Source: an uncultured Eubacteriales bacterium (GTDB lineage: Bacteria; Acidobacteriota; Aminicenantia; Aminicenantales; Aminicenantaceae). Taken from it: 64,000 nucleotides of DNA. The stretch is from positions 19,901 to 83,900 of the forward strand of contig CAYSCS010000101.1 in the NCBI GenBank assembly GCA_964429695.1, given 5' to 3'. Made by a program: the position numbers and the translations under genes. The stretch's first letter is position 1; each line of letters opens with the position of its first letter. Positions 1,599 through 38,724 of this stretch are shown here, piece by piece. The notes beneath the pieces were generated by a model. The model saw only the letters and a program-made list of their open reading frames with translations. It searched no databases and had not been told where the DNA came from.

Positions 1599-3722
1599 CT
1601 ACTGGTTTGCTTCCTTCTTCTTGTGCTGGTCGAACCAGGCAATTATGTGAAGCATCTTTGAGAGATGCTGGCTTGGTCGAGCAAAGATGCCATGGCTTGC
1701 TTCAGGGAATCTCACCAGAACCGCCTCCACTCCCCTCAATTTGAGAGCCATGTAATACTGTTCTGACTCGGACATGGGCGTTCGATAGTCCTGTTCTCCG
1801 GTGATGATGATGGTGGGCGTCTTGACATTCTTCACTACTGAGAGCAGGGAGCGTTTCTCATAATGCTCAACATAATCCCAAGGAAGACCAGGAAACCAGT
1901 ATTTAACACCGTAGGAAGCCATATCTGCGGTTAGAACCCAGCTGTACCAGTTTATGACAGGATAGAGGGTGGCAGCAGCACGGAATCGAGGAGATCTTCC
2001 AATCATCCAGCAGGTGAGCACTCCTCCCCCGCTTCCTCCTGTGACGAAGATGTTCTCCTCATCAATGTATCCTTTCTTGATGACTGCATCAACACCTGAA
2101 TCAAGGTCATAGAAATCGTCTCCTGGATAGGCGTGGTGAATGAGGTTTCCAAACTCTTCTCCATAGCTTGTGCTCCCCCGAGGATTAGCGTAAAGCACGA
2201 CATAACCCGCAGAAGCAAGGAGCTGTTTTTCCAGGCTGAAACGGTCTCCATAATTTGCAAATGGTCCACCGTGGATCTCGAGGATCAGCGGGTACTTCTG
2301 GGAAGGGTTGAAGTCAGGTGGTTTGATTATCCATCCCTGGATTTTTCGCCCATCCTTTGAAGATTCATACCAGATTTCTTCAACCTGCCCAAGCTTTTTA
2401 TGAGCAAGGATGTCTTCGTTGACTGCAGTGATGAGTCTGGGTTTAGGATTAGCAATGTTCGAGACTGCGATGTCGCTCGGATGGTCAGGGCGCGTGTAGG
2501 TGAAAGCGTAATTTCCGTTAGCGGCGACGGTGTAGCTTCCCCCTCCTCCATAGGCTATCCTTCCATCTCCTATATCCCCGTTGAGTATCTTCATTTTTCC
2601 GTCCAAGGTGAGATAGGCTAATTTAGTGTTTCCCTTATCATCGTACATGAAAAAAATTCCCCTGCCATCCTTTCCCCACATGATGTTATAGATGCTTCTA
2701 TCTAAATTCTTTGTCAGAGAACGTGAATTGCTCCCATCACGGTTCATAACATACAGCTCGGTCACCTGGTAACCCTGGTATCTGTCGTCAAAACCCACAT
2801 AAGCAATCAGGTTTCCAGCTGGCGAAATTGAAGGAGAATCATCCGGTCCCTTGCGGTTTGTGAGCTGACGGAGAGAGAGGTCTGAAATAGAAAATTCATA
2901 TATTTCAGTATCCAAAATCTCATATTCCCAATCATCTCTGCGGTTAGCGGAGAGGAGGATAGCCTTGTTATCAGGAGTCCATTCAAGCGAGGCTCCTCCA
3001 AAAACAGGAAAGGGATGATGGAAGTTTCCCTGAGAAACCTGTCTCGGCGTGCCTCCTTCTGCCGGCATCACAAAAAGATGCATGTATCCCTGGCTCACTT
3101 GATAACCCATTCCATCAAACCTGTAGATTACCTTGTCGATAACTGTGGCCGGGGGTGCCCATTTAGCACCTGGCGGACAAGGAGGTAGCTGGGCTATGGT
3201 CCGTGGCAACGAAGGTACAGGCGCAGAGAAGGCGATCCATTTCCCGTCTGGAGACCAGGAGATTCCCATGGGTGGAAAGAGCAGGTTGGTGAGAACAACC
3301 GTCTGTCCGGTATCCATCCAGCGTTTATAAATCTGCGGCTTTCCGTCTCTATCGGAAACGTAAATTATCTGGCTCCCATCTTGTGACCAGCGTGGAGAAC
3401 TATCATGATAAAGTCCACTCGTCAAGGGACGATTCCCTGTGCCATCGAAATTCACTATCCAGAGATTGGAATAAACATTATCTGTCATGATGTCCATGAA
3501 ATTCCGCACGTAGATTATTCTTTTCCCATCCGGGGAAATCTGAGGGTCAGAAACATACTCAAAATTGAAATAATCTTGAGCGGTGAAGAACTTAGATAAG
3601 TCCTTTCCAGTTTGAGAAAAAGAAAACGAAAGAGAAAAGGCCAAAAAGATGAAGCATAGCCTGATGAGTTTTTTTGACATAATCACCTCCTCAATTTTTA
3701 ATCTTTTAGACACCTTTCTCAA
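1599..3722 (-). CDS. S9 family serine peptidase (prolyl oligopeptidase / acylaminoacyl-peptidase-like) with an N-terminal TolB/PD40 beta-propeller and a signal peptide
   Basis: A hydrophobic signal follows an internal Met ('MSKKLIRLCFIFLAFSLSFSFSQ'). Repeated 'SPDGKRIIYV / SPDGKWIAF / SPAGNLIAYV' PD40 repeats are present. The C-terminal alpha/beta hydrolase carries a 'TGGSGGGVL' (GxSxG) nucleophile elbow, and ~700 aa is typical of S9C peptidases. Confidence 0.8.
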   Translation of the reverse strand: MRKVSKRLKIEEVIMSKKLIRLCFIFLAFSLSFSFSQTGKDLSKFFTAQDYFNFEYVSDPQISPDGKRIIYVRNFMDIMTDNVYSNLWIVNFDGTGNRPLTSGLYHDSSPRWSQDGSQIIYVSDRDGKPQIYKRWMDTGQTVVLTNLLFPPMGISWSPDGKWIAFSAPVPSLPRTIAQLPPCPPGAKWAPPATVIDKVIYRFDGMGYQVSQGYMHLFVMPAEGGTPRQVSQGNFHHPFPVFGGASLEWTPDNKAILLSANRRDDWEYEILDTEIYEFSISDLSLRQLTNRKGPDDSPSISPAGNLIAYVGFDDRYQGYQVTELYVMNRDGSNSRSLTKNLDRSIYNIMWGKDGRGIFFMYDDKGNTKLAYLTLDGKMKILNGDIGDGRIAYGGGGSYTVAANGNYAFTYTRPDHPSDIAVSNIANPKPRLITAVNEDILAHKKLGQVEEIWYESSKDGRKIQGWIIKPPDFNPSQKYPLILEIHGGPFANYGDRFSLEKQLLASAGYVVLYANPRGSTSYGEEFGNLIHHAYPGDDFYDLDSGVDAVIKKGYIDEENIFVTGGSGGGVLTCWMIGRSPRFRAAATLYPVINWYSWVLTADMASYGVKYWFPGLPWDYVEHYEKRSLLSVVKNVKTPTIIITGEQDYRTPMSESEQYYMALKLRGVEAVLVRFPEASHGIFARPSQHLSKMLHIIAWFDQHKKKEANQ

Positions 3723-4516
3723 GAAAAGTATTAATTTTAATCATGTTTAGATGGAATAAGATTTCCATAAAATTATTATCAATACCCTCGAGTTCTTCAA
3801 CCATCTGAGCTCATTCATGAAAAAATCAGCATAACAACTTTTAACTAATTTTACGAAAATTATCAAATAAAAGTTTTTATTTCTAAACTAGAAAAAGGTG
3901 AGAAGACTATCTTTCGTGTTCTCTCAGCATAATTTATCCGTAAGCTAGAGGATAACCTCGCACTTCTCTTTCTTTTCTTTAAAAAATCGATATTAAGAAG
4001 AAGGTCAATGAGAAAATCTTCTCCTCCATAAATCCAGAATACCAACAAAAGCAGGAAGCTAAGGAACTTGGGAAGAGTAATGCGCTCCCCGCATCTCGAT
4101 CTCCTCTTTGGCTTAAAATTTCCACTCGACATCCTTAATGACTTAACCCGGGCTTAAGAGTTCGCCATTTCCTCTCCCTGGAGAAAGATTTATTCCTCCC
4201 TTCTATTTCTGGCCTTTATTCCTCCATTTATGAATTCTCAATCCTCAATCTCTCTTCAATCTTCCTCTCAATGGCTCCGAAGAATAGAATGAGTCCCATT
4301 CCAGGATGAGAGGTCATCTCCAGATAAAAGCTCACGAAGAAGGGTATGTTTAAAATTCTTAAGGGACTATGAATAATTTTGTTTCAGATTTGATTCTCTT
4401 CTCTTCTTTATGGTATAAGCTCGATGAGGAAAAAATCTTCTGAAGAATGAAGTCATCCTCTCTCTCCAGAGAAAAGAAAAATTTCTCAAAAAACCATCCT
4501 TCGCAGGAGGTGTCGT

Positions 4517-6472
4517 ATGAAAATATTTTTTCGCTTCTTTTTAGTCTTTAGTCTCTTCGTTGCTCTCCAAGCGATCCTGCCTCTCTCGGAAGGAAGGGGC
4601 TTAAATCAAGAAGAAACTCAGGCTCTTGCCCCTTTCAAAGAAGGACCAAGTGACCCTGTAGAACTCGAGGCATTCATCGATGGCATCATGAGCATTCATC
4701 TGGAAACAAACCATATTGCAGGTGCAACATTCTCTCTTGTCAAAGATGGAGAACTCTTCTTGGCTAAAGGTTATGGATATGCAGATAGAGAAAAGAAAAT
4801 ACCCGTCAAGGCTGAAGAAACGCTTTTTCGACCGGGTTCAATCTCAAAGCTTTTCGTCTGGACTGCGGTGATGCAGCTTTATGAACAGGGAAAGCTTGAC
4901 CTCGATGCCGATATAAACACTTACCTCAGAAAGTTTAAGGTTCCTGAGACATTCCCCCAACCGATTACTATGAAGCATCTCATGAGTCATACTGCTGGAT
5001 TTGAGGAGATGATCAAGGAGATGTCAGTTCGGGACGCAAAAGACCTTGTACCTCTCGGTGAGTTTCTTGCCACTCACCTCCCAGCTCGAGTCATCCCTCC
5101 AGGCAAGCTCGCTGCCTATTCAAATTATGGAACTGCGCTTGCAGGATATATCATCGAAGAAATATCAGGGATTCCCTTTGAAGAATACATCGAAGAGCAC
5201 ATCTTCAAACCGCTCAAAATGGAAAAAAGCACTTTCCGCCAACCTCTCCCACTTCATCTTAAGGATTTGATGTCAGTCGGGTATTCATTTGAGAAAGGAA
5301 TCTTCAAGGCGCATGATTTCGAGTTGATAAATGGTCTTGCACCTGCAGGCTCGATGTCCACTACAGCCACAGACATGGCAAATTTCATGATTGCGCATCT
5401 TGAAAAAGGTCGATTCCAGGAGAAAAGAATTCTGAAAGAAGAGACGATAAGGCTGATGCATTCGAGGCTTTTTACTCATCACCCAAAAGTAAACGGAAAT
5501 GCCTATGGCTTCTGGGAACTTAAGCTGAATGAACTGAAGATGATCGAACATGGAGGAGACACAGCTTGGTTTCATTCATTTCTTGTGCTCATACCCGAGA
5601 AAAATGTTGGTCTCTTTGTCTCTTATAACAGTGCAGGAGGGGGCGGGTTTGCGCGTGAAGAGCTAGTAAAAGCTTTCCTCGACCGCTATTATCCTGGCGA
5701 AGAGAAGCCTCTTCCCCAGCCCCCTTCGGATTTCAAAAAAAGAGCAAAGAAATTCCTCGGAACCTATAGATTCACAAGAGTAGTCCATACATCCTATGAA
5801 AAGATGATGGCCCTGCTGATGAAAGTCGAGGTAAAGGCAACTCCTGAAAATACTCTTCTAATCACGCTCCCTGCAGGATTGGGTGCAAAGCAATGGGTTG
5901 AGGTAGAACCCCTTATTTTCCAAGAAGTGAGTGGCCAAGATACCCTAGTCTTCCAAGAAGACGAGAGAGGGCACATAATTCATGCTTTTGTAAATTCCTT
6001 TCCCTACTTTGCCCTGGTAAAGATGAGATGGTTTGAAACCCCGCTCTTCAGCCTTTCTCTCGTTTTGATTTGCGTCCTTCTTTTCCTTTCTGTCCTTCGC
6101 TGGCCCTTAAGTTCGCTGCTGAGGAGATTGTGTCAGCCTGAGGCAAAAGAAGGGAAGAAAGCACCCTCTACCTTTCGTCTCATAGTCTCGCTGATGGCTA
6201 TTCTTTACCTTATTTTCATAATTGGAGTGCTGCTCGTGCTCAGCGATTACATGAAGCTCATGTTCGGAGTCCCCTTGAGCTTGAAAATTCTTCTTTTCCT
6301 CCCTCTTTTCTCTTCATTCTTAACCTTCATAGCCATTTTCATCAGCCTCGTTACTTGGATTAAAGGTTACTGGAGCTGGTGTGCTCGCTTTCACTACACA
6401 CTCATTGTCCTTGGTTCAATCGCCTTTATCTGGTTTCTGAACTACTGGAATTTGCTTGGCTTTAAGTACTAA
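4517..6472 (+). CDS. Beta-lactamase-fold serine hydrolase (class C beta-lactamase / family VIII esterase-like) with a signal peptide and a C-terminal ~4-helix transmembrane domain
   Basis: Carries the 'RPGSISKLF' (S-x-x-K), 'YSNYG' (Y-x-N) and 'HGGD' motifs. There is an N-terminal signal 'FLVFSLFVALQAILP'. The last ~170 aa contain four strongly hydrophobic segments. Confidence 0.75.
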   Translation: MKIFFRFFLVFSLFVALQAILPLSEGRGLNQEETQALAPFKEGPSDPVELEAFIDGIMSIHLETNHIAGATFSLVKDGELFLAKGYGYADREKKIPVKAEETLFRPGSISKLFVWTAVMQLYEQGKLDLDADINTYLRKFKVPETFPQPITMKHLMSHTAGFEEMIKEMSVRDAKDLVPLGEFLATHLPARVIPPGKLAAYSNYGTALAGYIIEEISGIPFEEYIEEHIFKPLKMEKSTFRQPLPLHLKDLMSVGYSFEKGIFKAHDFELINGLAPAGSMSTTATDMANFMIAHLEKGRFQEKRILKEETIRLMHSRLFTHHPKVNGNAYGFWELKLNELKMIEHGGDTAWFHSFLVLIPEKNVGLFVSYNSAGGGGFAREELVKAFLDRYYPGEEKPLPQPPSDFKKRAKKFLGTYRFTRVVHTSYEKMMALLMKVEVKATPENTLLITLPAGLGAKQWVEVEPLIFQEVSGQDTLVFQEDERGHIIHAFVNSFPYFALVKMRWFETPLFSLSLVLICVLLFLSVLRWPLSSLLRRLCQPEAKEGKKAPSTFRLIVSLMAILYLIFIIGVLLVLSDYMKLMFGVPLSLKILLFLPLFSSFLTFIAIFISLVTWIKGYWSWCARFHYTLIVLGSIAFIWFLNYWNLLGFKY

Positions 6473-9400
6473 TACTCTATTAAGATGGAATCTTCTCCGA
6501 GGAGGTTCTTTATCGCTCGGGTGAGTTCTTCTGAAGGAGAGACAGAGGTAATTTCCGAAGACTGGGCGACCATTCGGTAGGAATGGGGTGTCTCAAGTTC
6601 AAATAAGACAGGACATCCTCCAGGATTCTTCTCCAAAATTCCTCTTAATTCTTCGAAAATAGACTCCTCAATTCCGGGGAGAAAAATTCTGAGAATAACC
6701 CTCTTTGCCTGTTTCTGAAGCGCTTCAGAAAGGGGCATTATCTCCATAAGATGTATCCTTCGATTCTCACCTTCTCCAAAGAATTTCCCTTTGACCCATA
6801 CCAGAGAATCTTCCCTCAGGATTTCATAATGCTTCCTGTATGAATCGGGAAAAACCACAACCTCTATCCGGCCACTCAAATCTTCGAGGACAAAAGTAGC
6901 CATTCTTTCTTCCTTCCTTGTCTTTAGAGTCTTCAAGGAAGTGACGATCCCTGCTACCTTTATCTCGGCGTTGAAATCTATCCCCTCATCCAGGTCACCC
7001 AGCGAATAGGAAACAAGCCTCTTTAGTTGCTTCTCGAATTGCCTCAAAGGGTGACCAGTGATGTAGAAGCCCAGGGCATCCTTTTCGTAAGAGAGGAAAA
7101 GGGGCTCATCCCACTCCCTCATTTCTTTTATTTCTCGAGGAATCTCTCTCGGCTCCAAGACATGATGTCCAAAAAGAAAGCTCTGTCTTGAAGACCTCAG
7201 CCTCTGGACTTCATGGGCATAATCAATCATCGTTTCCACAAGGTGAAAGAGCTGGCTTCGCTTCCACCCCAAAGAATCGAAAGCCCCTGCTTTGATCAAA
7301 CTCTCTATCACTTTGCGGTTAACAAGTTTAGAATCCACATCCTGAAAGACATCAAAAGGAGAGGTAAATTTTCCCCTCTTCTCCCTCGCCTTAAGCAAAG
7401 AGCGAACCGCGCTCTCACCCACGTTCTTGATTGCGGAAAGGCCAAACCTAATCGCTCCTTTGGAGACAGTGAAGCTGAACTCACTTTCATTGATGTCAGG
7501 GGGTAAGACATCAATTCCCATTTCTTTACATTCGTTTATGTATTTTATCACTTGAGAGGTCGCCCCTCTTTCAGCCTCCGAAGTCAGAAGCGCTGCCATA
7601 AAATACACTGGGTAATGTGCCTTGAGATAAGCTGTTCGATAAGCGAGATAAGCATAGGCAGCGCTGTGCGACTTGTTGAAGCCGTAGCCAGCAAAGTATT
7701 TTATCTGTTCGAAGAGTTTGGTGGCTTTAGCCTGACTGATTCCCTTTTTCCTCGCGCCTTGAATGAACCTCTGTTTCTGAGCCTTCATCATCGCGGTTTC
7801 CTTCTTTCCCATGGCTTTGCGCAGAATATCGGCTTCTGCCATGGAAAAACCCGCAAACTCTGTCGCTATCCGCATTACCTGCTCTTGATAGACGATAATG
7901 CCCTTTGTTTCTTTGAGAATGGGCTCAAGTTCAGGGAATTCATACACAACTCTCTCAGGGTGATTCTTCCTCTTTATGAATTCATCGGTCATTCCGCTCT
8001 TCAAAGGTCCGGGACGATAAAGGGCATTGAGAGCGATGAGGTCTCGAAAATTCTCGGGCTTAAAGTTTCGCAGAAGGTCCTTCATCCCAGGGCTTTCAAA
8101 CTGGAAGACTCCGTCGGTATTACCCGACTTGAAGACCTCGAATGTCTTTTCATCATCAAGAGGAATTTGTTTGAGGTCAATCTTTTGCTTGGTATCCTTC
8201 TCCACAAGCTCGATGGTATCCTGAATGACGGTCAAATTTCTTAGCCCGAGGAGGTCCATCTTCAGCAGCCCCAGAGCCTCTATATCCTGCATCGGAAACT
8301 GGGTGGTGATTTCTCCTTTTACAGACTGATAAAGGGGCATGAATTCCACTAGAGGCTTGGGAGCGATGACTATCCCTGCGGCATGGATGGAAGGATGGCG
8401 GATCTGACCCTCCAGCTTCTGAGCGATGCTCAGGAGATGGGCAATCTTAGTGTTCTTATCTCTTAAATCTTTGAGCTGAGGGATATTTTTGAGCGCACCC
8501 TCGATGGTAGCCTCTGGTCCAAAGGGAGGAATCATCTTTGCAATGGCATCCACCTCGGGAAGAGGAACTTCAAGTGCTCTCCCCACATCCCTTACAGCCT
8601 GGCGAGCCGCCATCGTTCCAAAAGTTATGATCTGACAAACATTCTCCCTTCCATATTTTTTTGTCACATATTCAATGACTTCTTCTCTGCGCCTGCCGCA
8701 AAAGTCTATGTCGATGTCAGGAAGAGTTATTCTCGCTGGATTGAGAAACCTCTCAAAGAGGAGGTCATACTCGAGAGGGTCAATATCTGTGATTCCCAGG
8801 CAGTATGAGAGGAGGCTTCCTGCTGCGGAACCTCTTCCCGGTCCCACAGGAATGTTCTTTTTCCCTGCCATCTGGACGAGGTCCCACACGATTAGAAAAT
8901 AGCCCTCAAATCCCATCTCTTTGACGAGCCGGATTTCTTTCTCCAGCCTCTCCTCATACACCCTTCTTTCTGGTAGCTCTCCCCTTTCAATCCTAGGAAG
9001 AAGGCTCTTTAAGCGTGCTTCGAAGCCTTCTCGGACAACTTTGTCGAAATATTCCGAGAGAGAGGTCCCCTCAGATGTCTTGAAAAGGGGAAGAAAATAT
9101 TCTCCCGAAGGAAAGTCGAAGTTACATTTCGAGGCTATCTTGATTGTATTCTGAATTGCCTCAGGAAGCTCCTTGAAGAGCTCGAGCATCTCTGGGCTTG
9201 ATTTGAAATAAAACTCCTTGGAACCAAAACGGATTCGATCTTGGTCTGTAACCTTCTTGTTTGTCTGGATACAGAGAAGGATATCCTGCATCTCTGCATC
9301 CTCTTTTCTCAGATAATGGACGTCGTTTGTGGCCACAAGAGGAAGGCCTAACTTTTTCGCAAGCTTGACAAGCTGGGGGTTGAGCTCCTTCTGCTCTGCA

Positions 9401-9945
9401 AGGTCATGGTCCTGGAGTTCGAGATAAAAGTCACCCTTCTCAAAGAGAGACGTGTATTCTAAAGCCTTCTGTTCTGCAATACCCTCCTCTCCCATTCTCA
9501 GGTAGAAGCTTATTTCTCCTTTAAGACAACCTGAAAGCCCTATCAAACCCTCGCTGTGTGCTTGAAGGAGCTCTTTATCAATTCGAGGCCTATAATAAAA
9601 TCCTTCGAGATAGCTTTTGGTAATGAGCTGGCAGAGGTTCTTATAACCCTTTTCATCCTTTACGAGGAGGGTAAGATGAAAATGGCCGGGTCCCTTCTCA
9701 TCCGGCTTCTTCTCGAAACGACTTCCTGGGGCAAGGTAAACCTCACAGCCGAGGATTGGCTTTATCTCCCTCTCCTTTGCCTGCTTGAAGAAATTTACTG
9801 CTCCAAATATGTTTCCATGATCGGTGAGAGCAACGGCGGGCATCTTGTGTTCCCAGGCGGCCTCGACAAGAGAACTAATCTTCATTGCCCCATCGAGGAT
9901 GCTGAATTCAGAGTGATTATGAAGATGAATGAACGAAGAATTCAT
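6469..9945 (-). CDS. dnaE: DNA polymerase III alpha subunit
   Basis: The N-terminal PHP domain reads 'IHLHNHSEFSILDGA'. At 1158 aa it shows typical DnaE-like similarity throughout, and it overlaps the upstream gene by 4 nt. Confidence 0.95.
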   Translation of the reverse strand: MNSSFIHLHNHSEFSILDGAMKISSLVEAAWEHKMPAVALTDHGNIFGAVNFFKQAKEREIKPILGCEVYLAPGSRFEKKPDEKGPGHFHLTLLVKDEKGYKNLCQLITKSYLEGFYYRPRIDKELLQAHSEGLIGLSGCLKGEISFYLRMGEEGIAEQKALEYTSLFEKGDFYLELQDHDLAEQKELNPQLVKLAKKLGLPLVATNDVHYLRKEDAEMQDILLCIQTNKKVTDQDRIRFGSKEFYFKSSPEMLELFKELPEAIQNTIKIASKCNFDFPSGEYFLPLFKTSEGTSLSEYFDKVVREGFEARLKSLLPRIERGELPERRVYEERLEKEIRLVKEMGFEGYFLIVWDLVQMAGKKNIPVGPGRGSAAGSLLSYCLGITDIDPLEYDLLFERFLNPARITLPDIDIDFCGRRREEVIEYVTKKYGRENVCQIITFGTMAARQAVRDVGRALEVPLPEVDAIAKMIPPFGPEATIEGALKNIPQLKDLRDKNTKIAHLLSIAQKLEGQIRHPSIHAAGIVIAPKPLVEFMPLYQSVKGEITTQFPMQDIEALGLLKMDLLGLRNLTVIQDTIELVEKDTKQKIDLKQIPLDDEKTFEVFKSGNTDGVFQFESPGMKDLLRNFKPENFRDLIALNALYRPGPLKSGMTDEFIKRKNHPERVVYEFPELEPILKETKGIIVYQEQVMRIATEFAGFSMAEADILRKAMGKKETAMMKAQKQRFIQGARKKGISQAKATKLFEQIKYFAGYGFNKSHSAAYAYLAYRTAYLKAHYPVYFMAALLTSEAERGATSQVIKYINECKEMGIDVLPPDINESEFSFTVSKGAIRFGLSAIKNVGESAVRSLLKAREKRGKFTSPFDVFQDVDSKLVNRKVIESLIKAGAFDSLGWKRSQLFHLVETMIDYAHEVQRLRSSRQSFLFGHHVLEPREIPREIKEMREWDEPLFLSYEKDALGFYITGHPLRQFEKQLKRLVSYSLGDLDEGIDFNAEIKVAGIVTSLKTLKTRKEERMATFVLEDLSGRIEVVVFPDSYRKHYEILREDSLVWVKGKFFGEGENRRIHLMEIMPLSEALQKQAKRVILRIFLPGIEESIFEELRGILEKNPGGCPVLFELETPHSYRMVAQSSEITSVSPSEELTRAIKNLLGEDSILIEY

Positions 9946-10052
9946 TTTTGCTTATCAAAATCTCCCGAAGAAATAGCGAATCAGATTTTTAAATTAACTC
10001 AAGAGGTTCTATTTGTCTAGAGCCTCTAAATAAAATCTTCATTTATTTCTTC

Positions 10053-11585
10053 TTATTCCCATTCAATTGTAGCAGGAGGTTTGGTGGTTATATCATATAC
10101 GACTCTATTCACTCCCTTTATCTCATTTACAATCCGGCTCGAGATGCGTCTAAGAAGCCTCGCGCTCGCCGGATACCAGTCAGCTGTCATCCCATCTACG
10201 CTCCTCACCAACCTCACAACTACCACACTCTCATAGGTTCTTCTGTCACCCATCACTCCCACTGATTTCACAGGGAGGAGAACAGGAAAGGCCTGCCACA
10301 GGCTGGGATAGAGTCCGGCCCTTTTGATTTCTTGAAGGAGAATATCATCCGCTTCTCTCAAGAGTTCCACTCTTTTTGGAGTCACCTCTCCCAGAATCCT
10401 TACTGCAAGCCCTGGCCCTGGGAATGGATGCTGGGCGATAAATTCCTTATCTACACCGAGCTCAGCGGCGATCTGCCTCACCTCGTCCTTGAAGAGCTCC
10501 CTGAGGGGCTCAATGATTTTAAATTTATGTTTTCGAGGAAGACCTCCTACGTTATGGTGAGACTTTATCCTTGCCGAAGGACCCTTTACAGATATACTCT
10601 CAATCACATCAGGATAAATCGTTCCCTGAACCAGAAATTCAACATTTCCTATTTTTTCTGCTTCTTTCTCGAAGATACGGATGAAAAGCTCTCCTATCAG
10701 TTTCCTCTTCCTTTCAGGAGAAACGATGCCCTTCAGCCTGCGCAGAAAAAGTTGCGAGGCATCCACTCCAATCACCTTGAGCGAGAGCTTCTTCTTGAAC
10801 TTTTTCATCAGCTCTTCAAATTGACCCTTCCTGAGGAGGCCGTTGTCCACGAAAATACAGGAAAGATTATCTCCCACTGCCTTCTTGACAATGAGGGAAG
10901 CCACTAACGAATCAACTCCACCACTCAAGCCACAGAAGATGCGTTTTCCGCGAACTCTTTCACGAATCTCCTCGACTTTCCTTTCCACAAAAGATTCCAT
11001 ATTCCATTCGGGTTTCAATCCTGCCAGGGTAAAGAGAAAGTTGGAAAGCACCTTTTTGCCTTCTCGAGTATGGATGACTTCAGGATGAAATTGGACTCCA
11101 AAGAGCTTCCTCTCCCTGGATTCGATGACGGCGAGTTCTGAATTTTCTGTTTCTCCAGAAATTATGAATCCTGGAGGCGGCTCAACGACTTTATCTCCAT
11201 GGCTCATCCACACCTCTCCACCTGCTTTTATTCCCTGGAGTAACCCCTCCTTCCACAATGGCTTAAGTCGGGCAAACCCATACTCCCTCTTTGCGGAAGG
11301 GGTCACTTTACCGCCTAAAAGATGGGCCATGATTTGTAAGCCGTAACATATGCCCAAAATAGGAATCCCGAGTTTGAAGATGGACCTTCCAAGAAGGGGT
11401 GCATTCCTTTCATAAACGCTTCCCGGACCCCCGGAAAGGATTATCGCCTGAGGATTTAGGGTTTTTATCCTCTCTGGGGTGAGATTGAATGGCCATATCT
11501 CTGAATAAACTCCAAGCTCTCTAATCTTTCTTGCGATGAGCTGGGTATACTGGGAACCAAAATCCAGGATGATGACTTTATTCAC
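10053..11585 (-). CDS. guaA: GMP synthase (glutamine-hydrolysing)
   Basis: The N-terminal GATase begins '[30 protein letters not shown]'. The ATP-PPase motif '[11 protein letters not shown]' is present, and the C-terminal end 'PPATIEWE' is the conserved GuaA terminus. Confidence 0.95.
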
Positions 11586-12044
11586 GCTCTGATTTTAACA
11601 TGAAGGGGGAAAAAATCCTATCCTTCTTGAAGGATGAGAAGGTAGAGATGAGTCATGAAAAAGAGCCTGCTTTTTGCAGAGAGAGTCTTTAATAAATTCT
11701 CTTCTTATAATCAGCATATTAAAAAACAGGTTATATGAAACCTCTGTGGTTAAGGATGAAAATAGAAAATATTTTGGGCACAGGGTAAGTCCAAAGCCTC
11801 AAGCCATAAATTACCAGTATGTTCAATTTTACATTTCTAAAGAGATAAATTATATGCGGCTTAGACTCTTCCTTAGCTCCGGTGAGAAAGAGGCTCTTTC
11901 GCCCTCCAGAGGGAACCTATTCTCTTCTCATTTACACTCTTAAAAAGAGAAGAGAGTCTACAAAAAATCCCTGGCCGAGAAAAAATTAAGCCTTCAAGAA
12001 AGGCTATTAAATTGACTTAACCACTTTAATTTCATATAGTTTCT

Positions 12045-13250
12045 ATGATGAACTGGGAAAAGCTTGCCAGAGAGCTAGTTCAAGAAACTGAATCTAAGAT
12101 AATCCTTCTCGTTCTGGATGGACTAGGCGACCTGCCTCTAGAGGGGAGGACTCCTCTTGAAGCGGCGCACAAACCCAATCTCGATCAACTTGCGGCAAAG
12201 AGTGTCTGCGGCCTTACTGACCCCATATTTAGAGGGATTACTCCAGGCAGCGGCCCTTCTCATCTTGCTCTCTTCGGCTATGATCCCTTGAAATACATCC
12301 TGGGGAGGGGAATTCTTGAGGCTCTTGGTCTGGGTGTTGAAGTCAGGGGAGAGGATTTAGTCGCCAGAGGAAATTTTGCCACCCTGAAAGATGGCCTCAT
12401 CGTCGACCGCAGGGCAGGAAGAATTTCCTCAATTGAAAACGAAAAGCTCTGCGCAAGGCTCAACGAGTCTCTGAGAAAGAGAAAAGGAGTGGGAATCACT
12501 CTTTTTCCAGGGAAAGAACACAGATTTGTGGCTAGATTCAGAGGGAAAAACCTTTCAGATTCCCTGAGCGATGCAGACCCCCAGAAAGAGAAAAATCCCC
12601 TGACCTATACAGAGCCACTCCATGAGGAAGCCAGGGAAACAGCAGTCCTCATCAACCGCTTCATCGATGAGGTCACAGAGATTCTGAAGGATTCACCGAA
12701 AGCAAACACAATCCTCCTCAGAGGATTTTCCAAACTTCCCTCCTTGCCCACCTTTTCCGAATTGTATGCACTCAAGGCTGCAGCGATAGCCAGCTATCCA
12801 ATGTACAAAGGATTGGCGCGGCTTTTGGGAATGGAGGTCGTTGAAGCGAACGAATCTCTGGAAGAGCTTTTTCTTGCCCTTGAAAATAATTACCAAAAAT
12901 ACAATTTCTTCTATCTCCATGTGAAAAAGACAGATACAGCAGGGGAAGACGGTAATTTTGAGGCAAAAAAGAAAGCAATCGAAGAAGTGGATGAATTCAT
13001 CCCCCGGCTTGTTGCCTTGAAGCCTGAAGTGCTGGTGATTACTTCCGACCATTCTACTCCTTGCCTTTTAAAATCCCACTCCTGGCATCCCAATCCTCTT
13101 CTTCTCTTCTCTCGAACATGTATACCGGATGAGGTGGAAATCTTCACAGAAAGAGGATGCAGTAGGGGATATTTAGGAAGATTTGAAGCCATTTATCTCA
13201 TGCCCTTAATACTCGCCCATGCAGGTAAATTAAAGAAATTTGGAGCATGA
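12045..13250 (+). CDS. apgM: Cofactor-independent phosphoglycerate mutase, archaeal-type (ApgM family)
   Basis: Carries 'ILLVLDGLGD' metal-binding motif and a 'VITSDHSTP' phosphatase-like motif. At ~400 aa this is ApgM/BpgM-like rather than GpmI-like. Confidence 0.8.
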   Translation: MMNWEKLARELVQETESKIILLVLDGLGDLPLEGRTPLEAAHKPNLDQLAAKSVCGLTDPIFRGITPGSGPSHLALFGYDPLKYILGRGILEALGLGVEVRGEDLVARGNFATLKDGLIVDRRAGRISSIENEKLCARLNESLRKRKGVGITLFPGKEHRFVARFRGKNLSDSLSDADPQKEKNPLTYTEPLHEEARETAVLINRFIDEVTEILKDSPKANTILLRGFSKLPSLPTFSELYALKAAAIASYPMYKGLARLLGMEVVEANESLEELFLALENNYQKYNFFYLHVKKTDTAGEDGNFEAKKKAIEEVDEFIPRLVALKPEVLVITSDHSTPCLLKSHSWHPNPLLLFSRTCIPDEVEIFTERGCSRGYLGRFEAIYLMPLILAHAGKLKKFGA

Positions 13251-14445: not shown

Positions 14446-15333
14446 ATGAAGAGAAGAGATTTTCTGAAAGAAATAGCCATAGGAAGCCTGATGATGAAGT
14501 TTAATCCCTCTCTTCTTAAGAGCGAAAAAAACAGTCCCGACCTTTCTCTCGTGCAGGGAGAATCTCCCTCTGAAATAACCAAGGAAGCCGTGGCTTTGCT
14601 GGGGGGTATGACACGCTTCGTTTCCCGAGGAGACGTAGTCCTCATCAAACCGAATATTGGCTGGGATAGAACACCTGAACAGGGGGCCTGTACCAACCCC
14701 GCTGTTGTTTCCACCCTCGTTGAGCTCTGCTTGAATTCTGGCGCTAAGGAGGTGAAGGTTCTTGACAACACCATCAACCCCCCTCAAAAAACGTACGCTC
14801 GTTCTGGAATCGCAGAAGCGGCACAAAAAGCTGGAGCCAAGGTTCTTTTTGCCAATCCCCATCGCTTAAGAAAAATGGCCATCGGTGGAGAATGGCTCAA
14901 GGAATGGGAGGTTTTCACAGATTTTGTGGAAGCAGACAAGCTCATCAATGTCCCTGTGGCCAAGACGCACAGCCTCTCAAGGGTTACGCTGGGGATGAAG
15001 AACTGGCTGGGTGCAATTGGCGGAAAGCGCAATCAGCTCCATCAGAACCTCGACCCTGCCATGATTGACCTTGCCGCCTTTTTCAATCCCTGTCTTACAG
15101 TCCTCGATGCCTACAGGATTCTCGTCCGAAACGGCCCTCAAGGAGGACGCCTTTCCGATACTCAATTATTCAAGAAAGTGGTGGCAGGTGTGGATTATGT
15201 GGCTGTGGATTCTATGGGAGCAACCTTCTTCGGCATAAGGCCTGAAGAACTGCGGTACCTTGAACTGGCAAAGCAAAAGGGACTGGGAGAGAACAATCTG
15301 GAGAAATTGAAAATTGAAGAAAAGAAGGTCTAA
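14446..15333 (+). CDS. DUF362-domain protein with a twin-arginine (TAT) signal peptide
   Basis: The N-terminus 'MKRRDFLKEIAIGSLMM' fits the TAT RRxFLK consensus. A DUF362-like core reads 'VLIKPNIGWDR...NVPVAKTHS'. The gene lies 5 nt after the amidase. Confidence 0.7.
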   Translation: MKRRDFLKEIAIGSLMMKFNPSLLKSEKNSPDLSLVQGESPSEITKEAVALLGGMTRFVSRGDVVLIKPNIGWDRTPEQGACTNPAVVSTLVELCLNSGAKEVKVLDNTINPPQKTYARSGIAEAAQKAGAKVLFANPHRLRKMAIGGEWLKEWEVFTDFVEADKLINVPVAKTHSLSRVTLGMKNWLGAIGGKRNQLHQNLDPAMIDLAAFFNPCLTVLDAYRILVRNGPQGGRLSDTQLFKKVVAGVDYVAVDSMGATFFGIRPEELRYLELAKQKGLGENNLEKLKIEEKKV

Positions 15334-16906
15334 AAAATATCAAATCATCCAGACACTCCGCATTCTCAGTCAAATACTTTTCTTTGGAATCTTTCTCTAC
15401 CTTCTAGTGAATACCCACTTCCCTGGAGAAGATTACATTGGAAAAGTGGAGATCTTCTTCCACTTCGACCCTCTCCTCGCTCTGGTTACTATCCTCGCTT
15501 CAAGAACCGTCTTCCTTTCTTTTATCTTCGCTTCGCTCACTCTAATCCTCACCTTTGTCATGGGCAGAGTCGTTTGTGGCTGGGTCTGTCCTCTGGGGTC
15601 AATCCACCAGTTCTTTTCTTTTCTCTTCAAGAAATCAAGGCTCCTTCGTCCTAAAAAAGCCAAAGATAACCACACAGTCTGGAAATACTATCTTTTAGCC
15701 ATACTCCTTGTCTGTTCTTTGCTAACCCTTGATCTTGTGGGCATCCTTGACCCCCTTTCCCTCCTCTACCGCTCCTTTACCATAAGCATCTTGCCTTCTC
15801 TCGATTACAGCTTCAATGCCTTTCTCAACCTCTTATACAAAATAAAGCTAAGCTCTTTTGGAGACAATCTCGTCCAGTTTTTTAAGACTCTGGCCATAAA
15901 TCCCATCTTCCACCAGGGTTTTTTCATCGGAATAATCTTCATCAGCCTTGTCCTTCTGAATGTTGTTCGAGAGAGATTCTGGTGTCGTTTCCTCTGTCCT
16001 CTTGGTGCCTTTCTCGGAATCTGCGCGAGATGGAATGTACTCAAGCTCCGAATTGACGAGAAAAAATGCATCGAATGTGGTCTTTGCAACCTTCATTGTG
16101 AGACTCAGGCAAACCCCTTCCCCGAGGATGAATGGAGAAGTCCAGAATGCGTTTATTGTTTCACCTGTAGTTCCCTATGCCCCACAAGCGCCATCTCCTT
16201 TCCGATGAAATCTGGACCTGAGGAAATTCAAAAAATCAACTTCTCGCGAAGAAGGCTAATTTTAACCTCTCTTCTGGGGGTTATTGCCACGCCTTTCTTC
16301 AGGTTAAGCCCTGGAGCAAGGCGAGCCTCCCCGAGACTAATTCGCCCCCCCGGTGCTCTTTCAGAAAGCACTTTCCTCCAGAAATGCGTCAAATGCGGAC
16401 AATGCATGAAAGTCTGCCCCACCAATGCTCTCCAGCCCGCTCTGGGCGAGGCAGGTGCAGAGGGAATCTGGACTCCTATTCTCGTACCCAAGATTGGTTA
16501 TTGTGAATACTATTGCTCCCTCTGCTCCCAGGTTTGCCCTACAGGAGCGATACAGGAGCTCACAGTGGAACAGAAGCTCCAGACGAAGATAGGAACGGCT
16601 TGGGTTGATAAAAACCGCTGCATACCTTATAACCTGGGGACTCCCTGCATAGTCTGTGAGGAACATTGTCCAACTTCGCCCAAAGCGATAAAGCTGGTAG
16701 AGACAGCAGTCAAGACCCCTGAAGGCTCGATTAAAACTCCCAAGGCGCCTCATGTGGACCAGAAGATCTGCATAGGATGTGGGATATGTGAGAATAAATG
16801 CCCTGTGGTAGATTCCCCTGCCATCTATGTGACGAGTGTCGGAGAAAGCCGTTCAGAGCAGAATCAGATGCTCCTCGACCTCCTCATCGAAGAAGAGATC
16901 CAGTGA
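15314..16906 (+). CDS. Membrane-bound poly-[4Fe-4S] ferredoxin (NapH/MauN/CcoG-like) with ~6 Cys4 motifs and N-terminal transmembrane helices
   Basis: The TM region carries 'VCGWVCPLG' and 'FWCRFLCPLG', the NapH-family CxxxCP pair. These are followed by CIECGLCNLHCE, CVYCFTCSSLCP, a further hydrophobic helix, then CVKCGQCMKVCP, CSLCSQVCP, CIVCEEHCP and CIGCGICENKCP. It overlaps the DUF362 gene by 20 nt. Confidence 0.8.
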   Translation: MKKRRSKKYQIIQTLRILSQILFFGIFLYLLVNTHFPGEDYIGKVEIFFHFDPLLALVTILASRTVFLSFIFASLTLILTFVMGRVVCGWVCPLGSIHQFFSFLFKKSRLLRPKKAKDNHTVWKYYLLAILLVCSLLTLDLVGILDPLSLLYRSFTISILPSLDYSFNAFLNLLYKIKLSSFGDNLVQFFKTLAINPIFHQGFFIGIIFISLVLLNVVRERFWCRFLCPLGAFLGICARWNVLKLRIDEKKCIECGLCNLHCETQANPFPEDEWRSPECVYCFTCSSLCPTSAISFPMKSGPEEIQKINFSRRRLILTSLLGVIATPFFRLSPGARRASPRLIRPPGALSESTFLQKCVKCGQCMKVCPTNALQPALGEAGAEGIWTPILVPKIGYCEYYCSLCSQVCPTGAIQELTVEQKLQTKIGTAWVDKNRCIPYNLGTPCIVCEEHCPTSPKAIKLVETAVKTPEGSIKTPKAPHVDQKICIGCGICENKCPVVDSPAIYVTSVGESRSEQNQMLLDLLIEEEIQ

Positions 16907-37517: not shown

Positions 37518-38119
37518 GTCTCTCAGCAAGAATAATTCTAGTTCTTACCTGTGTGGGTCTTCTCTCAGGTGGATTTCTTGCCACGGTGGGACTCTTAACC
37601 AAAGAGAGAATAGCCCTAAATAGAGAGAAAGAGATAGAAGAAGCCATCCTCGCGGTAGTCCCTGGCGCAAGTTCCAGCCAAAAATTATATGAAGGAGAAG
37701 GGCTTACCATTTACGCTGGAAAAGATGCTTCTGGAGTATTAAGAGGTTATGCCATACATGCTTCAGGAGTAGGCTTTCAGGATAAAATTGTGCTTATGTT
37801 TGGAACTAATCCCGCCCTTACCAAGATAAGAAAACTTGCCGTTCTTGAACAGAAAGAGACCCCTGGCCTGGGCGCAAAAATAACAGATGAGGAATCTTTC
37901 TTGAGATACTGGGAAGAGAAAGATTGCACAACAGAACTCAAGCTCCGCAAGCCTGCAGCAAGTTCTCCACAAGAACTCTCCCCTTCCGAAGTCAACACCA
38001 TTACCGGAGCTACAATCTCATCTGAGGCCGTTTTAAAAACAGTAAATCTTTCCCTTAAGCTCCTGAAGGGGTTGCAATTGGAGCGAGAGCTCTTAGGCGA
38101 GGAAAAAGATGAAGAATAG
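37514..38119 (+). CDS. rnfG: Rnf complex subunit G (FMN-binding, periplasmic)
   Basis: An N-terminal TM anchor reads 'MSLSARIILVLTCVGLLSGGFL'. The flavinylation motif 'TITGATISS' is present. The probable start overlaps the rnfD stop; the six-frame ORF begins at 37355. Confidence 0.85.
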   Translation: MSLSARIILVLTCVGLLSGGFLATVGLLTKERIALNREKEIEEAILAVVPGASSSQKLYEGEGLTIYAGKDASGVLRGYAIHASGVGFQDKIVLMFGTNPALTKIRKLAVLEQKETPGLGAKITDEESFLRYWEEKDCTTELKLRKPAASSPQELSPSEVNTITGATISSEAVLKTVNLSLKLLKGLQLERELLGEEKDEE

Positions 38120-38720: not shown

Positions 38721-38724
38721 AGAA

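Follow-up and report, generated by a model that had tools for sequence, protein, structure and literature searches.

The closest described relatives of the proteins that we discuss here are the polytopic polyferredoxins (PFDs), and dual insertion by Sec and Tat has been demonstrated for one member of that family (Tooke et al. 2017, PMC5449189). In this protein (Q1NSB0 of MLMS-1, a delta proteobacterium), fusions to MBP, AmiA, and Bla in E. coli established that both the insertion of the fifth transmembrane domain (TMD5) and the export of the C-terminal domain depend on Tat (PMC5449189). That study dealt with biogenesis alone, and neither a partner nor a function was proposed (PMC5449189). Another relative is NapGH of E. 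coli and Wolinella: NapH has four TMDs, a pair of CxxxCP motifs, and cytoplasmic clusters, NapG is exported by Tat and has four clusters, and in periplasmic nitrate reductase systems NapGH connects quinol to a periplasmic enzyme by electron transfer. MsrPQ and the fused heme-Moco protein Sco3746 follow a similar logic, in which a Tat-exported periplasmic catalytic domain is fed by a membrane electron-transfer module. The two parts may be encoded by separate genes or be joined in a dual Sec/Tat fusion.

A second group of systems to consider is the enzymes that use the nickel-pincer nucleotide (NPN). LarA racemases and epimerases (5HUQ, 7S91, 9EIA, and 9Q3J) are cytoplasmic, and their redox cycle is "hidden" and involves no electron partner outside the enzyme. 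NphT is an AKR and an NPN client other than LarA that was flagged by its adjacency to larBCE; it is a soluble TIM-barrel protein with no Fe-S partner, and its binding of NPN is proven experimentally (9YEB; Semersky et al. 2026, Nat Chem, PMC13524815). In about 15% of genomes, larBEC is present but larA is not, and the clients there are unidentified (PMC11796402).

The window (the whole 64-kb stretch of DNA that was analysed) encodes a DUF362 protein and a polyferredoxin in overlapping genes (Table 1). Both open reading frames lie where the earlier note had placed them, and the overlap of 20 nt that it gave is exact. The polyferredoxin starts at a TTG codon with a GGAG 10 nt upstream, and the gap of -20 nt between the two genes is identical in all 14 Aminicenantes-type loci. 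This long form is correct: 120 homologues, most of them with about 530 amino acids, conserve residues 1-31 (TMD1). One public annotation gives a product of 499 amino acids that drops TMD1, and we rejected it on the same grounds.

Table 1. Features of the DUF362-polyferredoxin locus, in positions of the window. Topology and function are predictions.
Feature	Position	Strand	Details
DUF362 gene	14446..15333	+	295 aa; predicted periplasmic catalytic subunit, predicted LarA-like fold
Tat leader MKRRDFLKEIAIGSLMMKFNPSLLKSEKNS	14446..14535	+	residues 1-30; RRDFLK motif 14452-14469
Candidate cofactor-binding core	14929..15042	+	residues 162-199: EAD-x10-H175-x9-K185-N186 ... R195 ... H199
Coupling region	15300..15333	+	GGAG 15300-15303, TTG start 15314, DUF362 stop TAA 15331-15333, overlap 20 nt
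Polytopic polyferredoxin gene	15314..16906	+	530 aa; NapH-NapG fusion, dual Sec/Tat family
NapH-like part	15314..16213	+	residues 1-300; hydropathy and motif scan
TMD1	15353-15415	+	residues 14-34
TMD2	15497-15565	+	residues 62-84
CxxxCP no. 1	15575-15592	+	C88, after TMD2
TMD3	15683-15751	+	residues 124-146
TMD4	15905-15964	+	residues 198-217
CxxxCP no. 2	15983-16000	+	C224, after TMD4
Two Cys4 motifs, predicted cytoplasmic	16067-16180	+	residues 252-289, starting at 252 and 279
Internal twin-arginine, TMD5, and trailing charges	16244..16345	+	S311-R-R-R-L-I-L; TMD5 315-333; R330, R336, R337, R341, R344
NapG-like domain, predicted periplasmic	16346..16903	+	residues 345-530
Four Cys4 motifs of NapG-like domain	16385-16801	+	residues 358-496, starting at 358, 397, 436, and 486

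As the earlier note described, etfA and etfB are directly convergent with the pair, with 4 nt between the stop codons. The upstream spacing of 4-5 nt that it reported holds for the amidase and DUF362 (5 nt) but not for apgM and the amidase, which are 44 nt apart. And although apgM, the amidase, and etfBA are indeed present, they lie outside the conserved module: we rejected them as components of the system because they recur in Aminicenantes only (etfBA adjoins the pair in 7-8 loci, all of them from Aminicenantes). The polyferredoxin's neighbors here are apgM, the amidase, and etfAB, with no napA or napC at the locus, and no molybdopterin oxidoreductase was seen among the scanned ORFs of at least 150 amino acids. 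We found no AKR, DUF6599, or tat genes within the 64-kb window, and neither lar genes nor a nickel transporter in the window or in the 14 Aminicenantes-type loci.

The pair itself is a self-contained and widely conserved module, and the pairing is near-obligate. We scanned genomes using a 12-sequence subset of the alignment as the query, and the polyferredoxin is adjacent to DUF362 and on the same strand in 70 of 80 species-representative loci; 9 of the other 10 have too little flanking DNA. Four of four further loci have the same synteny, which the earlier note had expected between DUF362 and NapH-type genes. DUF362 and the polyferredoxin are the only genes that recur broadly across the 80 loci. 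They are found together in Aminicenantes, Nitrospirota, Syntrophales, Terriglobia, Myxococcota, KSB1, Calditrichota, Ignavibacteria, Leptospira, Geomonas, and others, the same phyla in which the PFD family occurs (Nitrospirae and Caldithrix among them; PMC5449189). So the PFDs appear to have a near-obligate partner gene, and its product bears a Tat leader.

Judging by its sequence, the polyferredoxin joins NapH to NapG and belongs to the known "polytopic polyferredoxin" family with dual Sec/Tat insertion. NapH-type models from NCBIfam match its N-terminal half, and a NapG model (PRK09476, E = 6e-30) matches residues 311-508. For TIGR02163 and PRK09477 (NapH) and TIGR00397 and PRK09476 (NapG), all scores are below the curated cut-offs (90.3 versus 213 bits, 77 versus 234, 78.5 versus 179, and 104 versus 269). 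Pfam places Fer4_5 domains in the NapH-like part. The NapH-like character given in the earlier note describes one half of the protein. The motif scan did find every element that it had listed (i.e., paired CxxxCP motifs, two Cys4 motifs, a hydrophobic helix, and four more Cys4 motifs). Its count of six clusters matches the six Cys4 motifs, but the family is credited with seven clusters, the pair of CxxxCP motifs being read as one more. All 28 cysteines are invariant in close homologues. Among 52 homologues from outside Aminicenantes, the cysteines of the NapH part are conserved in all 52 and those of the NapG part in 50-52.

The five TMDs, the two CxxxCP motifs, the Cys4 motifs (two predicted to be cytoplasmic, four extracytoplasmic), and the fusion of NapH to NapG are all as in Q1NSB0. 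The two proteins also share a twin-arginine motif directly before a weakly hydrophobic TMD5 that is followed by positive charges (we compared them by their described features). The internal S-R-R is invariant in 120 close homologues, and 51 of 52 distant ones have R/K-R; in the flank of TMD5, R330 is arginine or lysine in 51 of 52 distant homologues and R344-P345 is kept in all 52. On the Hessa scale, TMD5 sums to +5.7 and TMD1-4 to -2.1 to +2.6 (this is a simple sum and not the value from the paper's dGpred server). The internal SRR motif, which the earlier note had missed, predicts that TMD5 is Tat-dependent and so explains the extra hydrophobic helix; the four clusters that follow it are therefore predicted to face the periplasm. 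Fe-S motifs on both sides of the membrane had been claimed, and the Cys4 sets do flank a helix with the hallmarks of a validated Tat-inserted one. Unlike NapGH, this is a single fused polypeptide, its scores lie far below the NapH and NapG cut-offs, and a DUF362 protein takes the place of the molybdoenzyme or cytochrome as its partner.

The DUF362 protein matches Pfam PF04015 over the full domain (E = 1.6e-48; 165.9 bits versus a gathering cut-off of 24), as the HMM search proposed earlier was expected to show; residues 65-259 cover positions 1-199 of the 200 in the profile. Its N terminus, MKRRDFLKEIA, contains K-R-R-D-F-L-K, which fits the Tat consensus (S/T)-R-R-x-F-L-K. We judged the leader by motif and hydropathy. 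A typical Tat h-region is moderately hydrophobic over about 12-20 residues and is followed by a signal-peptidase site; the one in the window (IAIGSLMM-K-FNPSLL) is short and interrupted by Lys18, which speaks against a typical leader, and there is no A-x-A site. The leaders of close relatives end in LLA|Q, and those from other phyla have canonical h-regions or lipoboxes. In our model, residues 1-30 are disordered and the folded domain begins at about residue 31. The twin arginines occur in 118 of 120 close homologues and in 120 of 150 diverse ones, so the predicted leader, like the earlier claim of one, applies across the subfamily. Together with the constant overlap of the two genes, this is much more than chance would produce. 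The earlier note had staked its reading on the leader, the topology, and the synteny; each came out computationally as it had predicted, and overall that reading is supported.

The DUF362 family related to the window's protein is large, with more than 6,000 clusters at 50% identity. The window's protein also matches the cyanobacterial Npun_F2552 family. In the literature on DUF362, on NapH/NapG fusions, or on Aminicenantes and Lar, we found no prior account of the DUF362-polyferredoxin pair and none that treats DUF362 as a protein with NPN. The main text of the NphT paper does not mention DUF362 (PMC13524815).

What does the DUF362 protein do? According to our structural model, it has the fold of LarA's NPN-binding N-domain (a LarA-type alpha/beta fold). 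We built the AF2 model from an alignment of 150 sequences, having discarded a version with 33 homologues (pLDDT 62), and fold searches with DUF362 gave structural matches to NPN enzymes exclusively. The matches extend over about 200 residues of LarA structures that have 400-450. Searches of PDB sequences with the protein or with a 60-sequence profile gave no match. Comparing DUF362 to LarA with hhalign gave nothing significant, either with a single sequence or with an 11-sequence profile (profile against profile, probability 0.3%, E = 0.2). We therefore make no claim of sequence homology from hhalign and rely on the fold searches and on a register test. In this test, the register that aligns the EAD..H..K of DUF362 to the LarA profile was the best of 108,400 ungapped registers, and 1 of 200 shuffles did as well. 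It pairs H175 with LarA's catalytic His174 and K185 with Lys184, which tethers NPN. Both hhalign runs repeat this register, though the alignments themselves are not significant.

Across 82 orthologues, 22 positions of DUF362 are 100% invariant, including D164, N168, P170, K173, H175, K185, N186, G189, R195, and H199 of the candidate core. H199 lies 14 residues after K185, as compared to 16 residues from Lys184 to the nickel ligand His200 in LarA. Its partner is ambiguous: it could be H200 or H221 of LarA, and hhalign places it near H221. We dropped a pairing of KPN...R with D72/R75 of LarA, as its ungapped register ranked 10,446. The second catalytic histidine of LarA (His108) aligns with a tyrosine or phenylalanine at 117. 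With about 265 mature residues, DUF362 corresponds to roughly the N-domain, and the C-terminal substrate-binding domain (Gln295, Lys298) is absent, as DUF362 ends at residue 295. Because both His108 and this domain are missing, DUF362 should not be filed as a LarA racemase. It also differs from LarA in having a predicted Tat leader and a putative Fe-S wire as its partner.

Like NphT, DUF362 stands out by its neighbors. Of 80 DUF362-anchored loci, 8 have larE, larB, or larC beside the pair, in four phyla; overall, we put the linkage at roughly 6-10% of loci. For example, Leptospira has a tight operon of DUF362-PFD-larE-larB-larC, Terriglobia have larE-larC-larB-PFD-DUF6599-DUF362-DUF362, and neither has an AKR nearby. 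We also did the reverse test with 80 LarC-anchored loci from metagenomes: the immediate neighbor was DUF362 in 5, an AKR in 4, and LarA in 0. In one of these loci, DUF362-PFD-larB is divergent from larC. The DUF362-anchored and LarC-anchored loci together show five gene orders.

We propose that the pair is a Tat-assembled periplasmic oxidoreductase, with DUF362 as a candidate NPN-carrying subunit on an Fe-S wire. TMD1-4 would be inserted by Sec, so that the paired CxxxCP motifs and two [4Fe-4S] motifs would face the cytoplasm. By means of its internal SRR motif, the weakly hydrophobic TMD5 and the pre-folded four-cluster NapG-like domain would pass to Tat, and the polyferredoxin would thereby become an Fe-S wire across the membrane. 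We infer dual insertion because the sequence features are identical to those of the PFD of Tooke et al. DUF362 would be loaded with NPN in the cytoplasm, which would explain its need for Tat and would put a name to the cofactor that the earlier note had presumed, and would be exported separately. It would then act as the catalytic subunit, docked to the periplasmic domain, a role suggested by the near-obligate synteny and the translational coupling. There it may perform hydride chemistry on some substrate, and the two electrons would travel along the seven-cluster wire to or from the quinone pool or cytoplasmic carriers, in either direction (substrate oxidation or reduction). The plan resembles that of MsrPQ and Sco3746, but with Fe-S clusters and a putative NPN in place of heme b and Moco, and the folds are unrelated.

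We are confident about the module and its topology, and on balance we lean towards the explanation as a whole. NPN as the cofactor of DUF362 is a more tentative proposal, somewhat less likely than not. We make it because of the LarA N-domain fold, the invariant His-x9-Lys in register, the lack of any conserved cysteine, and the linkage to larB, larC, and larE. Slightly more doubtful is the broader idea that DUF362 proteins with Tat export form a third class of NPN enzyme, after LarA and NphT-type AKRs, with a minimal LarA-like domain and a periplasmic NPN that is wired to the membrane. NphT itself has a fold unrelated to that of DUF362, and its binding of NPN is proven, whereas for DUF362 it would follow from comparison. 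An exchange of electrons between NPN and Fe-S clusters would also be without precedent.

The same architecture could also be a periplasmic oxidoreductase without NPN, which we consider unlikely but to be taken seriously. The LarA-like fold and polar pocket would have been kept for another ligand (a nucleotide-like cofactor, a metal ion, or the substrate beside the last [4Fe-4S] cluster), and Tat export would reflect co-assembly or fast folding. Most loci, including the window, have no lar genes nearby, which is what one would expect if no NPN were involved, and the weak hhalign results and the absence of His108 and the C-domain also fit. In Pfam as a whole, DUF362 usually occurs together with Fe-S domains, a hint of one-electron chemistry (PMC5742341). 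On the other hand, it would be odd for a non-NPN enzyme that its structural matches are all NPN enzymes, that the single best register sets an invariant histidine and lysine on LarA's catalytic histidine and tethering lysine, and that lar genes are linked to the pair in five gene orders and in operons that are free of AKRs. Also, we found no conserved cysteine or other cofactor motif among the aligned orthologues that would point to an alternative.

Another idea is that the NPN client is a Tat-exported NphT-like AKR, encoded elsewhere in genomes like this one, and that DUF362 and the polyferredoxin are its redox partner, oxidising or reducing anew either the cofactor tethered to it or the product. 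Tat-leader AKRs that resemble NphT do adjoin the pair in 7 of 80 loci, including an Aminicenantes-type locus (L011) in which the AKR is just upstream of apgM. Three of the lar-linked loci also encode such an AKR that keeps NphT's NPN-binding histidine and lysine; the one next to the pair in L066 is most similar to NphT (9YEB, E = 2e-37), carries a Tat leader, and keeps both residues (His144 and Lys200 of NphT). But an AKR is out of reach in 5 of 8 lar-linked genome loci and in 5 of 5 LarC-adjacent DUF362 loci, and 4 of 4 AKR-LarC loci lack both DUF362 and the polyferredoxin. AKR and DUF362 are mostly separate beside lar genes and are therefore alternative, not obligate, lar neighbors. Given this, and with no AKR in the window, we find this idea improbable. 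We give the least credence to a non-catalytic DUF362 (a factor that assembles or escorts the Tat-exported domain of the polyferredoxin, or a structural subunit for it, with the polyferredoxin serving some other acceptor, such as for cytoplasmic electrons from EtfAB, at which the earlier note hinted), because, although the tight coupling of the two genes and the convergent etfBA would suit it, the 22 invariant polar or structural residues lie in an enzyme-like pocket, the fold is known only from enzymes, the adjacency to etfBA is confined to Aminicenantes, and a cytoplasmic chaperone would not usually have its own Tat leader.

Returning to the NPN-carrying oxidoreductase, what would it mean? 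The polyferredoxin family has so far been a curiosity of membrane-protein biogenesis, and its near-obligate pairing with DUF362 suggests a concrete, testable role for both proteins, in a module found in many phyla of anaerobic and soil bacteria. Should the link to NPN hold, this cofactor, for which the users in larA-less organisms are largely unidentified, would gain a new client, and its chemistry would extend to the periplasm. Tat export would be accounted for in a protein without a recognisable metal or cofactor motif. NPN would serve as a respiratory-type redox cofactor that turns hydride into electrons, instead of running a "hidden" internal cycle, and this coupling of a hydride-transfer organometallic cofactor to an iron-sulfur chain would be without precedent. 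Finally, relatives of DUF362 could account for some of the genomes (roughly 15%) in which NPN is made without a LarA to use it, with the Npun_F2552 family as one candidate.

The conserved unit at this locus is a two-gene module, because DUF362 and the polyferredoxin (a protein of the NapH-NapG fusion type) were the only broadly recurring genes when we clustered the neighboring ORFs. We scanned genomes, one per species, with an alignment of 12 DUF362 sequences as the query and obtained 80 loci (L-numbers below) from Aminicenantes, Nitrospirota, Syntrophales and other Desulfobacterota, Terriglobia, Myxococcota, Glassbacteria, KSB1, Calditrichota, Ignavibacteria, Eisenbacteria, Leptospira, and Geomonas. 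The pairing proposed in the earlier note holds up: an HMM search of all ORFs found a full-length, same-strand polyferredoxin adjoining DUF362 at 70 of the 80 loci. Seven of the other ten are arranged as in Terriglobia and carry an insertion, and the expected polyferredoxin site is outside the fetched flank; one has a downstream flank of only 972 nt; and in one the DUF362 gene is at the contig edge. This leaves L058, where no polyferredoxin lies within 3 kb in either direction, as the sole locus without one. Furthermore, four of four loci that we found by a separate route carry the pair amid unrelated housekeeping genes. Carriers of the pair include two complete Aminicenantes chromosomes (CP070825.1 and OY969762.1) and, among cultivable organisms, Geomonas paludis, Sorangium, and Leptospira biflexa. 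Most commonly, DUF362 comes first and the polyferredoxin gene overlaps it or starts shortly after it, and the 20-nt overlap is kept in 14 of 14 Aminicenantes-type loci; in Terriglobia the order is polyferredoxin-DUF6599-DUF362b-DUF362a. We reject apgM, the amidase, and etfBA as parts of the module, as they recur in Aminicenantes only.

Other genes are found beside the pair in some lineages (see table). DUF6599 (PF20244), which has a Sec or lipoprotein signal, often joins the cluster as a third gene (18/80 loci), in most cases as the gene just upstream of DUF362. In Terriglobia and certain other lineages, the main DUF362 copy is directly preceded by a second one, a very divergent paralogue that also has an RR leader and retains only the core residues (P170, K173, H175, K185-N186, D221, and G230-P231). 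In some Terriglobia, a Memo-AMMECR1 fusion gene and a spermine-synthase-like gene lie between both DUF362 copies. The window also contains a Memo-AMMECR1 fusion gene, which may be a coincidence. Finally, at one locus a FAD-dependent oxidoreductase (DAO family) gene sits between DUF362 and the polyferredoxin.

Coordinates of features (window positions, or locus-internal positions for L-numbered loci; L135 is a LarC-anchored metagenome locus)
Sequence	Feature	Position	Strand
Window	DUF362, 295 aa	14446-15333	+
Window	Polyferredoxin, 530 aa	15314-16906	+
Window	Segment removed by the alternative GTG start	15314-15406	+
Window	rnfC-D-G-E-A-B	35218-40106	+
Window	ApbE flavin transferase	41259-42203	+
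Window	dnaN, dnaA	42200-44750	-
Window	Memo-AMMECR1 fusion	53486-54946	-
L050	DUF6599 (these four loci + 14 others)	818-1708	
L042	DUF6599	5703-6812	
L076	DUF6599	5234-5722	
L051	DUF6599	7866-8795	
L049	Divergent DUF362 paralogue (these four loci and others)	5761-6798	
L076	Divergent DUF362 paralogue	5749-6804	
L066	Divergent DUF362 paralogue	5744-6787	
L055	Divergent DUF362 paralogue	5937-6938	
L036	Memo-AMMECR1 insertion, Terriglobia	2935-4518	
L039	Memo-AMMECR1 insertion, Terriglobia	2795-4414	
L078	Memo-AMMECR1 insertion, Terriglobia	2786-4411	
L094	FAD-dependent oxidoreductase	11179-12285	
L054	DUF362 with R-K leader, Leptospira	3178-4083	
L135	Polyferredoxin with K-R-K motif	7327-8886	-
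L011	Twin-arginine-leader AKR (Aminicenantes-type)	2840-4192	+
L042	Twin-arginine-leader AKR	4721-5869	
L066	Twin-arginine-leader AKR	8111-9223	-
L081	Twin-arginine-leader AKR	8092-9630	-
L051	Twin-arginine-leader AKR	8847-10062	
L072	Twin-arginine-leader AKR	7742-8437	

Going by the closest homologues, all of which are labelled Candidatus Aminicenantes, the window comes from a genome of that group. Both of its ORFs are as previously described, down to the overlap of 20 nt (the stop codon of DUF362 is at 15331-15333), and the first matches the full Pfam DUF362 domain (E 1.6e-48). Convergence with etfBA was also correctly noted, with 4 nt between the stop codons of the polyferredoxin and etfA. 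A claimed spacing of 4-5 nt upstream is right for amidase-DUF362 (5 nt) but not for apgM-amidase (44 nt). The start codon of the polyferredoxin is TTG, with GGAG 10 nt upstream. We consider the TTG to be the right start because residues 1-31 are conserved in 120 homologues, most of which are about 530 aa long. In one public annotation of the same contig, the gene instead begins at a GTG located 31 codons further on, and the 499-aa product lacks the conserved first transmembrane helix (TMD1).

The N-terminus of DUF362 in the window, MKRRDFLKEIA, had been read as a twin-arginine leader, and comparison with homologues argues for this: 118 of the 120 closest have the motif RR[DE]F[ILV]K. Across 150 representatives (36-55% identity), 120 have an RR motif and a downstream hydrophobic stretch, and most of the other 30 are N-terminally truncated fragments. 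In the structure model, residues 1-30 are predicted to be disordered and the folded domain to begin at about residue 31. The window's h-region is short and has Lys18 inside it (IAIGSLMM-K-FNPSLL); the leaders of relatives end in LLA|Q, and other phyla have canonical h-regions. A Leptospira protein that is otherwise conserved is a natural variant with R-K (MKRKEFLQ) in place of R-R.

The label of NapH-like that was given to the polyferredoxin is half right. Its N-terminal half matches NapH/MauN in NCBIfam, but residues 311-508 match NapG, and all of these scores are well under the family cut-offs. Because the cut-offs are unmet and there is no nap gene context around it in the window, it should not be classed as NapH or NapG proper. 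Rather, it has the same anatomy as the "polytopic polyferredoxin" family of NapH-NapG fusions, in which Sec inserts helices 1-4 and Tat inserts helix 5 along with the cofactor-loaded C-terminal domain (Tooke et al., eLife 2017, PMC5449189). This dual insertion was demonstrated for the MLMS-1 protein with reporter fusions (PMC5449189). A hydropathy and motif scan gave the order of parts: four helices, the second and the fourth of which are each followed by CxxxCP; two Cys4 ([4Fe-4S]) motifs; an internal twin-arginine motif (S311-R-R-R-L-I-L); a weakly hydrophobic TMD5 (residues 315-333); a run of arginines (330, 336, 337, 341, and 344); and four more Cys4 motifs. On the Hessa scale, TMD5 is by far the least hydrophobic helix (+5.7, vs. 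-2.1 to +2.6 for the others). The earlier note saw "another hydrophobic helix" here, and the helix is present, but it missed the internal twin-arginine signal that appears to mark this helix as Tat dependent. That clusters lie on the two sides of the membrane, as it proposed, is backed by the family's topology, which has experimental support. Among 120 close homologues, neither the SRR motif nor any of the 28 cysteines varies. Of 52 homologues from other phyla, 51 have the R/K-R motif, 51 have R or K at position 330, and all 52 have R344-P345; each cysteine occurs in 50-52 of them. In a lar-linked polyferredoxin that is otherwise conserved, K-R-K precedes TMD5, which is another natural variant.

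What does DUF362 do? Neither its sequence nor its profile had a detectable match to solved structures. An AlphaFold2 model from a 150-sequence alignment is confident (pLDDT of 91.9 and pTM of 0.89), and judging from this model, DUF362 is the counterpart of the N-domain of LarA. In LarA, the N-domain binds the nickel-pincer nucleotide (NPN) and the C-domain binds the substrate (PMC12611868). Our LarA profile comprised L. plantarum larA from a plasmid lar operon and ten diverse homologues, with D72, R75, H108, H174, K184, H200, Q295, and K298 invariant. We compared the two profiles in every ungapped register of 25 columns (108,400 in all), and by score the best two and all of the top 12 share one diagonal (score of 17.6-18.8 vs. 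8.8 +/- 2.8 for column-shuffled maxima, with 1/200 shuffles equalling it). This diagonal puts EAD162-164, H175, and K185 of DUF362 opposite EAD161-163, His174, and Lys184 of LarA. His174 is catalytic and Lys184 tethers NPN. An hhalign comparison of the DUF362 profile with the LarA profile was not significant (probability 0.3%, E 0.2), and we do not rely on it. Across 82 DUF362 orthologues, 22 positions are fully invariant, including K173, H175, K185, N186, R195, H199, and D221, and no cysteine is conserved. The counterpart of the nickel ligand His200 is ambiguous (H199 is 14 residues past the lysine, vs. 16 in LarA), His108 aligns to Tyr/Phe117, and a pairing of KPN...R with D72...R75 is unsupported in the ungapped test. 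The window's DUF362 also matches the cyanobacterial NCBIfam family Npun_F2552 (E 2e-17, which is below the cut-off). Cyanobacteria are reported to have larB/E/C and to lack LarA. This DUF362-type family is a candidate for the missing cyanobacterial NPN client.

Among recurrent neighbors of the pair, Pfam identified three genes of the NPN pathway, which encode LarC (Ni_insertion, E 1e-145), a PP-loop ATPase of the LarE type, and an AIR carboxylase of the LarB type. lar genes flank the pair at 8 of the 80 loci, in four phyla. For example, Leptospira has DUF362-polyferredoxin-larE-larB-larC as a single tight operon; Terriglobia have larE-larC-larB-polyferredoxin-DUF6599-DUF362b-DUF362a; Syntrophaceae have larC-larB, larE, and AKR-DUF6599-DUF362-polyferredoxin, where AKR is an aldo-keto reductase; and Glassbacteria have DUF6599-DUF362-polyferredoxin-larE. 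We also did the reverse test with LarC as the anchor, in the 80 metagenome loci (825 kb) closest to the Syntrophaceae and Terriglobia LarC. Tat-DUF362 immediately adjoins LarC in five of these, with the polyferredoxin there wherever the contig allows; one locus has DUF362-polyferredoxin-larB on one strand and larC divergent. Since larBEC is present in roughly a quarter of genomes (PMC11796402), we infer that chance adjacency within a few kb would give far less than one locus per 80. None of the LarC-anchored loci has a LarA homologue within 10 kb, and 70/80 have no recognised NPN client, which is consistent with many NPN users remaining unidentified.

In the loci that have an AKR, the lar genes could serve it rather than DUF362. 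AKRs that adjoin larBCE are NPN enzymes (NphT, PDB 9YEB; Semersky et al., Nat Chem 2026, PMC13524815), and an AKR with a Tat signal adjoins the pair at 7/80 loci. The one in L066 is closest to 9YEB (E 2e-37) and retains the NPN-binding His144 and Lys200 of NphT. These sequences suggest that periplasmic, Tat-exported NPN-AKRs exist; the main text of the NphT paper does not mention them (PMC13524815). However, of the eight lar-linked genome loci, five have no AKR in reach, and the same is true of all five LarC-adjacent DUF362 loci. Conversely, an NphT-like AKR adjoins LarC in 4/80 LarC-anchored loci, and none of these AKR-LarC loci has DUF362. DUF362 and the AKR look like alternative NPN clients, neither dependent on the other.

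The 64-kb window contains no lar genes, AKR, DUF6599, nickel transporter, or tat genes, and the lack of lar genes is the main gap in applying the NPN hypothesis to this locus. The window is housekeeping DNA (dnaE, guaA, fabF-acpP-fabG-plsX, polA, relA/spoT, and dnaB) and probably spans the chromosomal replication origin: dnaN and dnaA are at the cumulative GC-skew minimum, and the skew, negative before about 44 kb, is positive after it. A complete rnf operon followed by apbE points to energy conservation based on ferredoxin:NAD+ in this organism.

We propose that Sec inserts TMD1-4 of the polyferredoxin and that the internal RR motif directs TMD5, together with the folded domain and its four clusters, to Tat, as shown for the family, which would place three cluster sites on the inner side of the membrane and four on the outer side. 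Given the synteny and coupling, Tat would export DUF362, which would bind to the periplasmic domain and serve as the catalytic subunit. We think that this module and its topology are probably as proposed. From the fold, the residues, and the lar linkage, DUF362 may take up NPN in the cytoplasm, which would be why it depends on Tat. It would then act on a substrate in the periplasm by hydride transfer, and the Fe-S chain would pass electrons between it and the quinone pool or cytoplasmic carriers, in one direction or the other. That NPN is the cofactor is a tentative suggestion, and we would put it at somewhat below even.

The polyferredoxin family and its biogenesis, the clan membership that DUF362 shares with LarA, and AKRs as NPN clients outside LarA were already known. 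In the literature that we searched, we did not find descriptions of the near-obligate DUF362-polyferredoxin module, of DUF362's exclusive structural match to NPN enzymes with the His/Lys pair in register, or of its recurrent linkage to larBCE. The module is of the same type as the NapGH electron module, but the catalytic partner is new. If the coupling of NPN to Fe-S clusters is confirmed, it would be a plausible route to something categorically new.
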